64,000 bases of DNA from a virus: the IMG/VR virus record IMGVR_UViG_3300044716_000732, positions 23,023 through 87,022 of that record. One strand, given 5' to 3'. Every line of letters starts with the position of its first letter. The stretch's first letter is position 1. The translations under genes and the position numbers were made by a program. This document shows positions 21,441 through 52,932 of the stretch, one piece after another. The notes under the pieces were generated by a model, which saw nothing but the letters and a program-made list of their open reading frames with translations, did no database searches and was not told the origin of the DNA.

Positions 21441-23372
21441 ATGTCATATACTTTAAAAAACGATGTTTCTTCTGCTCCACTTAATTGTAATGTAGGTTAC
21501 AATAATAGCTGGATTCATGTTGATAATAATGCTGGTAGAGAGCTTTTTGCGCAAGCATCTTACATAACTAATTTTTCAGATATAAACATTAGTTTATCTG
21601 CCAGTGACCTAGACATAGGTTCGGTACATATATTAGATCCCGATAGCGGATTAAAAGCTGATGTTGTGCCAGTTGGAATTGGAATTGGTGCATTAAGAGT
21701 TATAAGTCAAGATTTAGAATCTTTCGAAGATGATGTAACTATTGGTGATAGATTAGGAAATTTTGCATCGGTATATGCTCCTTTAAGCGCACTTAAAGTT
21801 TATAATACAAATCCTATATCTTCTGTAGATATAACAAATATTGTTACAGTAAAGGCATCTAATACATTTCCAATATCTGGATCTGTAACCGTTTTAAATC
21901 CAGTAACTTCTGTTAATGTTTTAAATTTTCCAACACAATTAACTGCTATTAGTATTACTAATCAATTGACAGGAATAACCATTTTAAATCCAATAACATC
22001 GGTTAATGTTTTAAATTTTCCAACACAATTAAGTTCTGTTAGTATTTTAAATCCAGTAACATCGGTTAATGTTTTAAATTTTCCAACACAATTAAGTTCT
22101 GTTAGTATTACTAATCAGTTAACAGGAATAACCGTTTTAAATCCTGTTACTCAAGTTACTACATTACCACAACCAACTCAACTTGATGCATTTGGTAGAT
22201 TAAGAATATCTTCCCCTATGACTTTGTTTGATTCTTCACATCGTTACAAGGATAATAATTTATGGTCTACACTATCCGCAAATGGAGGTTCGGTTTCATT
22301 TAATGCATCACAGGGATTAATGAATTTAAACGTTACTAATACAGCAGGAGCAAGCGCAATAAGAGAAACAACAAAGGTATTTTCCTATCAACCCGGTAAA
22401 TCCTTGCTTGTCATGAATACATTTGTCATGGCTTCTTCTGCTACCAATTTAAGACAGAGGGTAGGATATTTCGGAGATCAGAATGGAATATACTTTCAGT
22501 TAGATGATGGTAATATTAGTATAGTTAAAAGATCCATTGTCACTGGTTCTATTGTAGAAAGTGTAATTTCTCGTTCTAATTGGAACGGTGATAAGCTAGA
22601 TGGAACTGGCTCTTCTGGTATAGTTTTAGATATAACCAAAGCTCAAATTTTTTGGATGGATATTGAATGGTTGGGAGTAGGAACAGTAAGAGTTGGTTTT
22701 TGTATTAACGGGCAGTTTATTGTTTGTCACTCATTCCATCATGCTAATATTATAGATTCAACTTATATTACTACAGCTTCCTTGCCTTTAAGATATGAGA
22801 TTATTAATAAAGCAGCTACAACAGGTGGATCTAAAACACTAAAACAAATATGTTCTACTGTTATTTCCGAAGGTGGTTATGAATTAAGAGGCTTACAACA
22901 AGCAGTCTCTATTCCAATAACTTCACCAAGAACGTTTGCGGTAGCTGGTACGTTTTATCCAATCATTTCAATTCGATTAAAAACAACTCCAGACAGACTC
23001 GATGCAATTATTATTTTAACTGCTTTATCAATACTTGGACAAGGAAATGGCATAAATTATAACTGGCAGGTTAAAGCAAGTGGAGTCACAACAGGAGGAG
23101 ACTGGGTTGATGCTGGGGTTGACAGTGCCGTTCAATATAATATTACAGGAACAAGCTATGCAGGAGGAAGAATTTTAGCAAGTGGATTTTTAAATGCTTC
23201 TAATCAAGCTTCTCCAAATTTGGATATTCTTAAAGAAGCTTTGTTTAAGTTTCAATTAGAACGAAACAATTTAACAAAAACTCCTTTTGAATTAACTTTG
23301 GTTGCTGCATCAGATACCACTAATGGTTCTGGTATGTTTGCTTCTATGGATTGGGAAGAAGTTAGTCGTTGA
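21441..23372 (+). CDS. Probable virion structural protein with internal tandem repeats
   Basis: Beta-rich; repeats of LNPVTSVNVLNFPTQL (21890-22160); DAFGRLRIS and EWLGVGTVR lectin-like C-domain; TAAGTA at 21429. Confidence 0.7.
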   Translation: MSYTLKNDVSSAPLNCNVGYNNSWIHVDNNAGRELFAQASYITNFSDINISLSASDLDIGSVHILDPDSGLKADVVPVGIGIGALRVISQDLESFEDDVTIGDRLGNFASVYAPLSALKVYNTNPISSVDITNIVTVKASNTFPISGSVTVLNPVTSVNVLNFPTQLTAISITNQLTGITILNPITSVNVLNFPTQLSSVSILNPVTSVNVLNFPTQLSSVSITNQLTGITVLNPVTQVTTLPQPTQLDAFGRLRISSPMTLFDSSHRYKDNNLWSTLSANGGSVSFNASQGLMNLNVTNTAGASAIRETTKVFSYQPGKSLLVMNTFVMASSATNLRQRVGYFGDQNGIYFQLDDGNISIVKRSIVTGSIVESVISRSNWNGDKLDGTGSSGIVLDITKAQIFWMDIEWLGVGTVRVGFCINGQFIVCHSFHHANIIDSTYITTASLPLRYEIINKAATTGGSKTLKQICSTVISEGGYELRGLQQAVSIPITSPRTFAVAGTFYPIISIRLKTTPDRLDAIIILTALSILGQGNGINYNWQVKASGVTTGGDWVDAGVDSAVQYNITGTSYAGGRILASGFLNASNQASPNLDILKEALFKFQLERNNLTKTPFELTLVAASDTTNGSGMFASMDWEEVSR

Positions 23373-49700: not shown

Positions 49701-50247
49701 GTATAAGAAGCTTGATCAAGCTATTAGAAACATTCCAGATCATTTTTAAATTATGAAAATAACATACGAACTAAAAAATATAATAGAAAATATATCTACA
49801 CTAACTCCTAGTGAAATTATTAAGAAACTTGATGATTTTTTGTATATCACAAACAGTTTTGATGAAAAGTATGGTGGAAATTTTAATACTCTATATTGTG
49901 GACTACATGTTTATACATATCTTCAATTGTCTTCAAAATATAAATTTGAACATAATGTAAACGATTTAGAATTTCCAGTTCTTTTTGGTAAGTGGACTAA
50001 TGAAGAACAAACAATTTCTTTATATCTTTCTCCAGATAGATGTAAAGATGATGAATTTATTATTGAAAACGGATTATGAATGACGCAGAATATTGGGAAA
50101 AACAAATTGTAGAAGTTTGTAAACAATACTTTTATCTTCGGGAAATATTAAATGAAATTGTTATTGCTCCCTTCGATAAGGAACCATTTAATAACATAGA
50201 ATGGTATAAAAATGTTGCAAAAAGAGCATTAGAAGAATCTTCATTAA

Positions 50248-50317
50248 ATGAATAACGAATATACACCAGATAAATGGCTGGTTGTTAAAATTGAAGGAGA
50301 AGAATTTCCTTTGACCT
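50248..50317 (+). pseudogene. Stranded 5' end of an old allele of gene 51671-52000; doubles as the predicted TnpB guide source
   Basis: MNNEYTPDKWLVVKIEGEEFPLT versus MKQYTPDKWLVIKIEGGDFPLT; breaks inside the Tyr codon at the TnpB right end. Confidence 0.85.
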
Positions 50318-50352
50318 GTGAACTACCAGTAGGCTAAAGACCTACTGGCTTC
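50318..50352 (-). mobile_element. IS200/IS605-type right end / omegaRNA 3' hairpin
   Basis: Minus strand GAAGCCAGTAGG-TCTTTAG-CCTACTGGTAGTTCAC: hairpin ending in TTCAC. Confidence 0.75.
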
Positions 50353-51593
50353 AGGGTATAAATTCTACCCTTCTTTTTAAGAACTTCAACGCCAGTGCCT
50401 CTAGAAACCTTTGAGATCTCCTTTGGTCTTACCTTAGCTCCATTCCTGTTATCGACAGTTCCTGCCGATTGAATTGCTAATGCTCTTCTTAAAATATTCC
50501 TACTTGCATTAACATCTCTGTCATGTATTGTGTTGCATTTAGAACAAGTCCAAGTTCTTTCATCCAATGAAAGAGATTCTTTGGTGTGATCGCAGCAACT
50601 ACATGTTTTGGAAGACGGATAGAAACGATCAATTACAATCACTTCTTTATCATTCCATTCTGCTTTGTACTTTAATTTGGTCACAAAGCTCGACCATGCT
50701 ACGTCTGATATTGCCTTAGAAAGTTTATGATTCTTAACCATCCCTTTCACGTTCAGGTTTTCTATTGCAATCAGATCATAGTCTCTTACTAACTTAGAAG
50801 AAACTTTATGTTGCATATCATTACGAGAATTGGTTATCTTCTCGTGTACCTTTGCAACAGCTATTCTAGCTTTGTCTCTTCCTTTTGATCCTTTTTGTTT
50901 TCTACTTAAAATTCTTTGCTTTTTAGCTAACTTAGCTTCATACTTCTTAGTGAACTTCGGATTACAATATCTCTGTTCTTCAGAAGTAATAATGAAGTCT
51001 TTCAACCCCAAATCAATTCCAATGCTCTTTCCTGTTTTCTTGTGTTTAATTGGCTTTTCCGCAACGCACAGGAAGGAAATGTAGTATTTTCCTGTAGTTA
51101 ATTTGGAAATGGTTGCTGATTTAATTTCTCCTTTTAGTTCTCTATGTTTAACAAATTTTAATCCTTCTTTGAACTTTGGTATTTGAACTACATTTTCTTC
51201 TTTTAAAGAAATATGTTGAGGGATCTGAAACGAATTTTTATTCTTTTTTGATTTAAAACGAGGGAACTTAGATTTCTTTTTAAAAAAATTGCCATAAGCT
51301 GTTTCCAAATTCATTAGAGTGGATATAAGAACTTGCGAATTAACTTCTTTTAACCATTCATATCCTTCTTCTTTTTTCTTAGCTACTAAATTTCCTGCAC
51401 ATTGATTAAAATTCAACGTTGTTTTGTTTTCCAAATAATGTTTTTGCTTTTCAGATAAAAAGTGATTATAGATGAATCTAGAACATCCAAAGTGCTTTGC
51501 TAAAAGAACTTCTTGCTCCTTTGTAGGAAGCAAACGGAACTTAAATGCTTTATGCATTTCGTTCTCTTTTAGTTCTTGACATTTCCCGATCAT
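50334..51593 (-). CDS. tnpB: TnpB RNA-guided nuclease (no TnpA in window)
   Basis: KAFKFRLLPT HTH, FGCSRFIYN, RuvC GIDLG / IENL / DRDVNA all intact, Zn finger CSCC..CSKC. Confidence 0.95.
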   Translation of the reverse strand: MIGKCQELKENEMHKAFKFRLLPTKEQEVLLAKHFGCSRFIYNHFLSEKQKHYLENKTTLNFNQCAGNLVAKKKEEGYEWLKEVNSQVLISTLMNLETAYGNFFKKKSKFPRFKSKKNKNSFQIPQHISLKEENVVQIPKFKEGLKFVKHRELKGEIKSATISKLTTGKYYISFLCVAEKPIKHKKTGKSIGIDLGLKDFIITSEEQRYCNPKFTKKYEAKLAKKQRILSRKQKGSKGRDKARIAVAKVHEKITNSRNDMQHKVSSKLVRDYDLIAIENLNVKGMVKNHKLSKAISDVAWSSFVTKLKYKAEWNDKEVIVIDRFYPSSKTCSCCDHTKESLSLDERTWTCSKCNTIHDRDVNASRNILRRALAIQSAGTVDNRNGAKVRPKEISKVSRGTGVEVLKKKGRIYTLKPVGL

Positions 51594-51670
51594 TTATTAT
51601 ACTTATCTCAGATGAATGTATTTTTAGAGTAAAAATTAAAAATACTTTAAAATATTTTAAATAGTAATTT

Positions 51671-52000
51671 ATGAAACAATACACACCGGACAAATGGCTG
51701 GTTATTAAAATAGAGGGCGGAGATTTCCCACTGACCTATAAAGTATTTGCTTGTTGGCATGGAGGATATTTGGACGGAGATTCTTGGAAACTAAACAGCG
51801 GAATTACAAAAGTTACAAAAGAAGGAAATTTCTATTTGTTTGAAGGTTATTCTGGTTCTGTTTATGCCTGTAACGAAAAACGTTATGGTTCCACTGCATA
51901 TGGTTATGGTGTTTTACATAACATTATAGAAAAATCCAAAGAAGCTGGAGTAAATGTAGAAAAAATGCCAGACGATACAAATTGGCTGGAGTTAGTATAA
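51671..52000 (+). CDS. Conserved phage hypothetical protein (intact, recoded copy)
   Basis: YTPDKW...YKVFACWHGGYLDGDSWKLNSGI; promoter TTGACA(51576)-16-TATACT lies in the tnpB 5' region. Confidence 0.8.
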   Translation: MKQYTPDKWLVIKIEGGDFPLTYKVFACWHGGYLDGDSWKLNSGITKVTKEGNFYLFEGYSGSVYACNEKRYGSTAYGYGVLHNIIEKSKEAGVNVEKMPDDTNWLELV

Positions 52001-52024
52001 TTATTTAAAATAAATATCATATAT

Positions 52025-52858
52025 ATGAGCATAACAAACAACAATTATATTCTTCCTGAATCTGTCAATTTGGATGAAATGAGAGAATCATTTAAACGAC
52101 ACGGTTATGCTGTTGCTCGTGGTTTGTTTTCCAAAACAGAGGTAGAAGAAATTAAAAATACCTTTGATCAAATTGCAAAGAATGGTCCTATTGAAGATTC
52201 TTTTTATCCTGTATCTAAAGAAGAATCAAACGGAGATCCTTTAAAAGAATTTCCAAGAGTGATGCAACCGCACCGTTTCAACGCAGTATCTCGTAAGAAT
52301 CTTGTTCATGCGGGTGTTCTTTTTTGCTTGAAAGACCTCATGCAAGAAGATGTACTTGCCGCACAGAGTATGTTTTATTATAAACCACCTGGCTCTAAGG
52401 GACAAGCAATGCATCAAGACAATTTCTATCTTTTAGTTGAGCCGCAAACGTGTGTTGCAGCATGGACTGCTATTGATGATGCTGATCCCGATAACGGAGG
52501 AATGTATCTTGTGTCAGATACAGCAGAAGAGGCAATCATATGCCCTAAAGAAGCTAATGCTAATGAGTCATTCACAACTCATTTTGTACCAACTCCAAAA
52601 GGAAAAAAAGCTGTTCCTTGTATTATGAAGTCAGGAGATACATTGTTCTTTAACGGTTCTTCAATTCATGGTTCTGGACCAAATCGTTCTAAAGACAGAT
52701 TTCGTAGATCATTTATTTGTCATTATGTTCCAAAAACAACACAACGCATTAGCAAGCATTATCTTCCGTTAATAACACCTGAAGGAGAAGATGTTATGAT
52801 TGAAGCTAATCAGAGCGGAGGTCCATGTGGCAGCACATGGGAAGGTGGACAACATTAA
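52025..52858 (+). CDS. Phytanoyl-CoA dioxygenase (PhyH)-family Fe(II)/2OG oxygenase
   Basis: KPPG...HQD, AWTAIDD...NGG, GD.LFF...IHGSGPN.S..FRR; TAAATA at 52011. Confidence 0.9.
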   Translation: MSITNNNYILPESVNLDEMRESFKRHGYAVARGLFSKTEVEEIKNTFDQIAKNGPIEDSFYPVSKEESNGDPLKEFPRVMQPHRFNAVSRKNLVHAGVLFCLKDLMQEDVLAAQSMFYYKPPGSKGQAMHQDNFYLLVEPQTCVAAWTAIDDADPDNGGMYLVSDTAEEAIICPKEANANESFTTHFVPTPKGKKAVPCIMKSGDTLFFNGSSIHGSGPNRSKDRFRRSFICHYVPKTTQRISKHYLPLITPEGEDVMIEANQSGGPCGSTWEGGQH

Positions 52859-52863
52859 ATCTT

Positions 52864-52932
52864 AAAGAAGCTGGAGTGAAGGTAGAAATAATGCCAGATG
52901 ATACAAATTGGCTTGACTTGTTCTACAATTGA
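52864..52932 (+). pseudogene. Stranded 3' end of the old allele of gene 51671-52000
   Basis: KEAGVKVEIMPDDTNWLDLFYN* versus KEAGVNVEKMPDDTNWLELV* (51938-52000). Confidence 0.85.

Follow-up and report, generated by a model that had tools for sequence, protein, structure and literature searches.

We describe a locus in which an intact tnpB gene of the IS200/IS605 family is linked to a complete, diverged copy of the gene that it interrupts. The locus occupies positions 50248-52932 of a 64,000-nucleotide stretch of viral DNA (IMG/VR record IMGVR_UViG_3300044716_000732, positions 23,023 to 87,022), hereafter called the window, which constitutes the right 64 kb of an 87-kb record rated 43% complete. 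The interrupted gene encodes a small conserved phage protein and is named X here. The linked copy of X is altered exactly at the sequence that corresponds to the predicted TnpB guide, and is predicted to escape that guide; the linkage itself rests on one contig. We consider it probable, if only just, that the locus encodes a nuclease that is guided by RNA, serves in homing or competition and is paired with a resistant copy of the gene that it targets. What can be read directly from the sequences is the anatomy of the locus, the target motif of the element, a conserved RNA structure, a pool of matching alleles in related phages, a unique patch in the full X copy, the mosaic make-up of the element and the recurrence of the same design elsewhere.

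Anatomy of the locus

The old 5' fragment of X, which starts at 50248, overlaps the stop of the upstream open reading frame (ORF) U1 (50076-50255) and ends against the right end of the tnpB element. Beyond tnpB, which runs on the minus strand, lie the complete X copy, a phyH gene and the old 3' end of X (Table 1). This layout and all its coordinates, as given in an initial annotation of the locus, were confirmed from the ORFs and the sequence. That annotation had interpreted the locus as a cleave-and-rescue gene drive carrying phyH as cargo; its observations hold, and its interpretation is supported in part, failing for phyH as cargo, for the old 3' end as a homology arm and for a phage late promoter in front of tnpB. 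Both old ends of X are ~80% identical to the full X copy (tblastx of the 5' fragment against the full copy, E 2e-9), and the duplication is therefore not a repeat that was collapsed or doubled by the assembly. A search of GenBank phages returned a sole match of 93 bp, to a Paenibacillus phage transposase, which was uninformative.

The TnpB protein and its conserved RNA

The 419-amino-acid product of tnpB matched the Pfam families OrfB_IS605 (PF01385, 2e-28), Cas12f1-like TNB (PF07282, 1.6e-24) and HTH_OrfB_IS605 (PF12323, 3e-19), all above the curated cut-offs, and the PHROGs family phrog_506 (1e-135). Residues D194, E278 and D360, which we take to be the catalytic D-E-D triad from their motif context (GIDLG, IAIE, HDRD) and the presumed ISDra2 positions, were invariant across 11 TnpBs, as were the zinc cysteines. 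The set of related loci comprised 10 close ones gathered from IMG/VR and 38 gathered from JGI metagenomes, and a second scan of IMG/VR with a TnpB alignment yielded no further close relatives. tnpB was open over its full length in 25 of 28 relatives, including all six that have no left-end hairpin. From the intact catalytic motifs and open frames, the nuclease looks functional. Among cellular genomes (one per species, 185,579 species), the closest TnpB was 55% identical. A single match at 84% proved to be a viral contig binned into a metagenome-assembled genome.

The last 230 nucleotides (nt) of the element share a fold in 30 sequences, with compensatory changes in 20 of the 54 predicted pairs, and the compensated stems include some inside the tnpB coding region. 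The fold of this predicted RNA corresponds to that expected of an omegaRNA scaffold. Rfam contained no family for the right-end RNA; one antisense match was sub-threshold (E 0.27) and was dismissed. Elements with tnpB only are an accepted subgroup of the IS200/IS605 family, and, judged by its sequence, the element in the window is a truncated member of this tnpB-only (IS1341) type.

Element ends, guide and target motif

In every inspected tnpB locus that reaches it, the right end reads (T/C)AGTTCA(C/T), and the flanks beyond are unrelated; one locus (L073) ends inside tnpB. Because similarity stops at this sequence across loci, position 50318 is the true right end of the element: GTGAAC (GTTCAC on the minus strand) directly follows the old X fragment at this position, and a hairpin comes after it. 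This makes the predicted guide the reverse complement of 50298-50317, the last 16-20 bases of the old X 5' fragment, and the placement of the guide in the flank beyond TTCAC, as first annotated, is upheld by the common right end. In L058/L059 the right end reads GTTCAT, and a second right-end-like terminus, which may be a solo or tandem end, lies ~75 nt further downstream of tnpB.

A left-end hairpin was found in 22 relatives, about 85-130 nt upstream of tnpB. TTTAT occurred 19-24 nt before the stem in 14 of these 22 loci, compared with 42 of 1100 control windows; TTTAA was found in four and TTTAC in two, and L056 and L062, which were mis-anchored in this count, were scored as having none. The proposal that the element uses a TTTAT-like target motif is thus borne out by the relatives whose left end is intact.

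Neither alignment to the relatives nor a hairpin search of the window revealed a left-end hairpin there, and the Y1 transposase TnpA had no match in the element's own 87-kb record (43% complete) or in the records of five relatives, one of them complete. Both absences agree with the initial annotation, which had reported no tnpA and no recognizable left end. Because the hairpin is missing and no TnpA was found in the record, the element is considered no longer able to transpose. Left-end hairpins are also missing in five other contexts (L050, L055/L020, L017, L018 and L070), and these losses are independent; in L050, L055/L020 and L017 the start codon of a divergent gene occupies the expected position of the hairpin. 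In all six left-end-less contexts, the window included, tnpB is open and retains its RuvC motifs.

The stretch in front of tnpB had been read as a phage late promoter. It belongs to the element, as it is conserved in copies at unrelated sites, and represents the element's own 5' region. An outward-facing sigma-70-like sequence inside the 5' end of tnpB (TTGACA, 16 nt, TATACT) matches the consensus at 11 of 12 positions, and this predicted promoter fits an element end that drives the X copy, as had been suggested; it is a consensus match, in a region where the total number of promoter-like sites equals chance. TTGACA also occurs at the corresponding position of L019, a tnpB locus situated in a gene for an RNA ligase.

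Target alleles of X in related phages

X is conserved and was found in 247 IMG/VR stretches, the best 80 of which formed the allele set; 77 alleles could be placed. Seven close relatives without tnpB (L001-L006 and L008) carry a single uninterrupted X that reads ...CCTTTGACCT, or minor variants thereof, followed by ATAAAG. This is the arrangement predicted for tnpB-free relatives, namely one uninterrupted X reading ...TTTCCTTTGACCT immediately before ATAAAG. ATAAA was present at the motif position in 52 of the 77 alleles and was combined with at most three mismatches to the 20-nt guide in 23, six of which matched all 16 motif-proximal bases. The guide therefore has real targets in related phages. 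Within the window, no other site combined the motif with three or fewer mismatches to the guide, the right-end junction itself excepted.

The linked full copy of X

In the full X copy, the target-equivalent site (51718-51737) lies directly before ATAAA (51738-51742) and differs from the guide in six of 20 bases, at positions 7, 8, 11, 14, 18 and 20 from the motif, four of these within the first 16. The changes at positions 7, 8 and 11 are synonymous (TTG>CTG, CCT>CCA and TTT>TTC). The mismatch positions and the three synonymous changes nearest the motif had been annotated correctly. The resulting codons, TTC CCA CTG, are rare among the 40 xPLT alleles, in which the same residues are encoded: TTC occurs in none of them (26 have TTT), CCA in one and CTG in one. 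The recoded site occurred in none of the 77 alleles, and the motif combination had no match in IMG/VR, in line with the expectation that no tnpB-free relative carries the recoded sequence.

When the full copy was compared with the sampled alleles in sliding 30-nt segments, only segments starting at 51693-51717 differed from every allele by 5-8 of 30 bases, and downstream segments lay within 0-2 of 30 bases of L001/L093. The full copy is therefore a chimera of a cassette-linked start, a unique patch and an ordinary body. Its first ~30 nt (51671-51701), together with the spacer, are common to L007 only; the patch over the target (51702-51731) is unique among the sampled alleles; and from 51737 on the copy is almost identical to L001/L093, with last codons as in L086. 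The patch covers both the target and the expected cut site, which for TnpB has been placed 15-21 bp from the motif (PMC8612924).

Recurrence of the design

The same design was found in L007, the TnpB of which is 97% identical to that of the window. L007 shares the truncated left end, the spacer and the start of X, and its right end adjoins a 19-nt start of X (codons 1-6) located after the stop of the ORF U2. The full X copy of L007 has GAC where other alleles have GAT, which changes the motif to TTTGT, and carries a unique patch over the site. Alleles with GAT at the next codon read TTTAT at the L007 target point, and TTTGT as a second motif was rejected for this reason. In both X cases, the window and L007, the tract of the full copy that no sampled allele shares stops at the target site of that locus. 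L007 belongs to a complete genome (G001, Table 1), in which no Y1 transposase was found.

A duplication test applied to all tnpB loci gave a score for the window and for L019/L060/L061 only. The 19-nt X stub of L007 was recognized by eye, and a match in L052 was not counted, being a distant paralogue 1.5 kb away. In L019 (3460-5012; also assembled as L060 and L061), a member of the TnpB family lies inside a gene for a T4 Rnl1-like RNA ligase. The right end is flanked by a 49-codon old fragment of the ligase gene. The left end is intact and abuts TTTAT 7 nt upstream of the full ligase gene, which starts 12 nt beyond the left end. Special recoding of this ligase copy was considered and rejected, as the copy represents a common allele class.

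Mosaic origin of the element

The tnpB gene of the window is a mosaic. Over the 3' 180 nt it shows 99.5% identity to L021, a copy at another location that has retained its left end; for the next 300 nt no sampled copy exceeds 92% identity; and the 5' 800 nt, together with the spacer and the start of X, are 99-100% identical to L007. Identity between the window and L007 is ~100% over 50798-51700 and 75-88% in the body of X, so that a ~100% identical block of 900 nt stands in backbones that are otherwise 75-92% identical. L052 and L066 have the same left-end flank and hairpin, together with different tnpB bodies (88% vs 75% identical to that of the window) and different right-end flanks; recombination therefore occurs inside the element.

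One 96-kb record (L106/L017) contains two tnpB genes: one without a left end, found 1.3 kb upstream of X with a YopX-like gene and a small gene as its neighbours, and another located 14 kb away. In several related phages the tnpB elements are concentrated in one and the same hypervariable region, which is made up of small genes.

The simplest origin of the locus would involve two steps: an intragenic insertion at TTTAT, for which TnpA would be required from somewhere, and recombination inside the element with a copy located upstream of the same gene. If TnpB was active, only recombinants with a full copy that escapes the new guide would survive. Alternatively, the diverged tract may have been carried over during break repair; such a transfer predicts a donor-type tract that ends at the cut, as in both X cases.

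phyH and other features

The 277-amino-acid ORF downstream of the full X copy matched the Pfam family PhyH (3e-30). In L086 the gene order is U1-X-phyH (phyH 96% identical at the amino acid level), X and phyH join at the same point, and phyH is followed by an old X 3' end that has been shortened; tnpB was found neither within 3 kb of this locus nor elsewhere in the 134-kb record. L007 contains the tnpB cassette without phyH. phyH and tnpB therefore arrived independently, which contradicts the assignment of phyH as cargo. Since tnpB-free L086 shows the same arrangement, internally deleted, the old X 3' end at 52864-52932 is the scar of a separate insertion and not a homology arm of the tnpB cassette. 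Six other phyH loci were found in unrelated contexts. Across the 80 X loci, phyH occurred nearby in one, tnpB in two, and both in none.

On either side of phyH lies a version of the last ~22 codons of X (51935-52000 and 52864-52932; 2914-3860 in L086); the two versions have diverged, and the upstream one carries a new short tail (..ELV). The phyH insertion is thus a second event of the type new gene end, cargo, old gene end, with an internally deleted old end in L086. Part of the stretch was contained in 20 of the 24 sequencing runs listed (17 studies), nine of which contained at least half of its words. The listed runs were all lake or freshwater metagenomes, one of them RNA (share 0.05), and were not used as evidence for linkage, expression or habitat.

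Table 1. Features of the tnpB/X locus in the window and the complete genome that carries the related locus L007.
Feature	Position	Strand	Remarks
Old X 5' fragment, 23 codons	50248-50317	+	82-91% amino acid identity to X starts of L001-L008
Right end of the element with the 3' portion of tnpB; conserved RNA fold resembling an omegaRNA scaffold, terminating at GTTCAC (50323-50318)	50318-50547	-	
tnpB, 419 amino acids, intact ORF	50334-51593	-	RuvC D194/E278/D360; CxxC...CxxC zinc motif
Sigma-70-like promoter match (TTGACA, 16 nt, TATACT)	51576-51603	+	Reads towards the full X copy
Leftover of the left-end interior of the element; hairpin and outer end gone	51594-51658	-	Matched in alignment by the interior of the left end in L016 and other copies
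Complete X copy, 109 amino acids, chimeric	51671-52000	+	Starts 77 nt beyond the tnpB start
Target-equivalent site in the full X copy (51718-51737) with retained TTTAT (51738-51742)	51718-51742	-	
phyH, 277 amino acids, 2OG-Fe(II) dioxygenase family	52025-52858	+	Separate, older insertion outside the tnpB unit
Old X 3' end, last 22 codons and stop	52864-52932	+	Scar of the phyH insertion
G001, record of L007	85422-89198 (of G001)		Complete 202,880-bp genome, direct terminal repeats, RecA-family recombinase, one tnpB

Discussion

The guide used by TnpB is ~16 nt long and derives from the flank of its transposon; TnpB needs the target motif of that transposon and cuts 15-21 bp from the motif (PMC8612924). 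We propose that processing of the tnpB transcript of the window yields an omegaRNA that has the old X sequence beside the right end as its guide. During mixed infection, the complex of TnpB and this RNA would cut X alleles of related phages that combine 5'-TTTAT with a matching target, and the break would be repaired by phage recombination from the tnpB-bearing genome. One arm would be provided by the old 5' fragment with the genes upstream of it and the second arm by the body of the linked X copy, and repair would copy tnpB along with the 5' part of the linked copy. The carrier would be spared at the junction, where the element end TTCAC takes the place of the motif, and at the full copy by the mismatches in the motif-proximal part of the target. 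New targets could be acquired through recombination, inside the element, between an intragenic insertion and a copy located upstream of the same gene. RNA processing, cutting, homing, the resistance of the full copy and any benefit to the phage are all predictions from the sequences. The chimeric X copies and the shared 900-nt block may be indirect signs of spread; prevalence is low.

Several points weigh against a homing or competition nuclease. The guide match alone proves nothing, because the guide of any IS605-type insertion matches its own insertion site. X gave no match in Pfam, PHROGs or the protein atlas that would indicate its function; it is without a Pfam or PHROG family. tnpB lies near X in only two of the best 80 X loci, the junction of the right end with X occurs in no other IMG/VR contig, and a strong drive would be expected to be commoner than this. 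The patch in X comprises 10 changes in 30 nt, far beyond what escape needs, and is explained equally well by selection and by a tract copied from an allele that was not sampled. The target variant of the full ligase copy belongs to a common natural class, with ACAAA as the motif in 17 of 50 alleles, and the divergence of a 'rescue' copy can therefore be ordinary allelic variation. The proposed model does not account for the arrival of the right end at the X site without a TnpA. Finally, this is a metagenome contig with a mosaic tnpB, and the assembler could have joined the junction and the left-side copy.

We rank as the main rival a passive scar, in which an element still capable of transposition inserted into X at TTTAT with TnpA supplied in trans and ordinary phage recombination within the element, with a copy located upstream of X, then restored the gene, TnpB having no role in the spread or protection of the locus and the diverged target being a chance allele. 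The mosaic tnpB, the recombination inside the element seen in L052/L066 and the presence in L017 of an intergenic copy of the kind that this route needs all agree with such an origin, as do the common allele class of the full ligase copy and the rarity of the locus (two of 80 X loci). We nevertheless consider it rather unlikely, given that the unique tract of the full copy ends at the target in both X cases and that the recoded site is absent from the 77 alleles and from IMG/VR. Moreover, tnpB is open with its catalytic motifs in all six left-end-less contexts, which a total loss of function would not predict.

The sequence evidence for a homing nuclease would serve equally for a pure competition weapon, that is, a complex that cuts X of co-infecting relatives to cripple them, with an element that is rarely copied and a diverged copy that is self-protection only. 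The rarity of the locus agrees with this, and precedents are at hand: according to a review, homing nucleases can favour their phage by killing competitors that are too diverged for conversion (PMC13565253), and an intron nuclease has been described as active in phage competition (PMC11620839). The chimeric X copies of the window and L007 and the ~100% identical 900-nt block look, in contrast, like transfer of the cassette between genomes, and we regard a weapon without copying as improbable. Still more doubtful, in our judgement, is an assembly chimera, in which two strains or element copies were joined inside tnpB and the old fragment and the full copy are not real neighbours. An assembler could change paths where parts of tnpB are 100% identical to other copies; yet the same design is present in a complete, terminally repeated genome (L007/G001), and the ligase case occurs in two separately named metagenome contigs (L060 and L061). 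The middle 300 nt of tnpB are at most 92% identical to any sampled copy, which would require at least three sources, and the joints between block, patch and body in X lie within ~40 nt, less than the length of a read.

Beyond the homing or competition nuclease proposed for this locus, we tentatively put forward a broader view, which we hold to be possible rather than probable: a TnpB lineage restricted to freshwater phages may have abandoned transposition and become a reprogrammable RNA-guided homing and competition nuclease. Recombination inside the element would give new flanks and thereby new guides. Where the target is a conserved gene, the surviving unit would be a natural cleave-and-rescue drive, consisting of an old stub that acts as guide and arm, a nuclease, and a full copy that has diverged at the target. 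The idea that transposition was abandoned is based on the lack of a TnpA and on at least six losses of the left end with the gene remaining open. If true, the lineage would represent an extant intermediate that links TnpB tied to a transposon with a free-standing form of RNA-guided interference among mobile elements.

Cas12 descends from TnpB, a protein known for maintaining its own transposon at its site. The idea that TnpB homes into co-infecting phages has been put forward, and in the literature that we found, homing has been shown only for plasmids. A 2026 review treats homing of TnpB transposons into co-infecting phages as theoretical, citing plasmid evidence only, and does not use the word 'rescue' (PMC13565253). 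A preprint describes TnpA-independent, RuvC-dependent spread of insertion sequences driven by TnpB in plasmids (PMC11870625), and a cyanophage preprint mentions a phage tnpB of unknown role (10.64898/2026.02.14.705889). Our full-text search of the literature found no report in which a TnpB of a phage is accompanied by a diverged version of the gene that it targets; the supplements of these papers may hold phage examples. The window and its two parallels provide concrete cases of what appears to be a non-transposing TnpB that has been kept intact and is aimed at a conserved phage gene beside a copy predicted to escape the guide. If cutting and biased inheritance hold true, RNA-guided nucleases act as homing endonucleases in virus-virus conflict, the retargeting of guides without a transposase is explained, and a natural counterpart of engineered cleave-and-rescue drives exists.

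Comparison with known systems

On the proposed reading, the locus is a variant on known themes, namely TnpB homing and the intronless homing of phages. It shares with IS200/IS605 TnpB systems of the ISDra2 type and the IS1341 group the protein domains, the RuvC triad, a structured right-end RNA, a guide supplied by the flanking DNA and an AT-rich motif of 5 nt that equals the insertion target (PMC8612924). Unlike these systems, the element of the window resides in genomes of lytic-type phages, is accompanied by no TnpA even in the complete relative, has lost its left-end hairpin (as have the elements in five other contexts), is at most 55% identical to the closest cellular TnpB, and is linked to a full copy of the interrupted gene.

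TnpB-mediated retention and the plasmid 'gene drive' depend, as is proposed for the window, on cutting of element-free sites and recombinational copying, which is independent of TnpA in plasmids (10.1101/2023.03.14.532601; PMC11870625). Those cases concern sister chromosomes or plasmid copies and simple insertions, whereas the proposed targets here are co-infecting phages and a conserved gene, with a linked copy that is putatively resistant. In phages, the nuclease-dead TnpB relatives known as TldR have been described to repress host flagellin beside a phage flagellin copy that is not targeted (PMC13418256). TldR has no nuclease activity and acts on a host target, whereas the TnpB of the window has intact catalytic residues and its proposed target is a phage gene.

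The free-standing homing endonucleases of T4-like phages (Seg and Mob) are likewise encoded between or inside conserved genes; in their intronless homing and marker exclusion, self and non-self are distinguished by substitutions in a nearby gene, and flanking markers are co-converted (PMC13565253). Unlike for Seg and Mob, recognition by the element of the window would be guided by RNA and its target would shift with the flank, and the protein family is unrelated. In the synthetic cleave-and-rescue (ClvR, or toxin-antidote) drives, a nuclease aimed at a gene is combined with a tightly linked, recoded copy of that gene which escapes the guide. Similarly, the guide of the window matches wild X alleles and the linked X copy is mismatched to it. 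It differs from ClvR in being a natural unit with one guide, and in the presence of homology arms, through which homing would be possible too.

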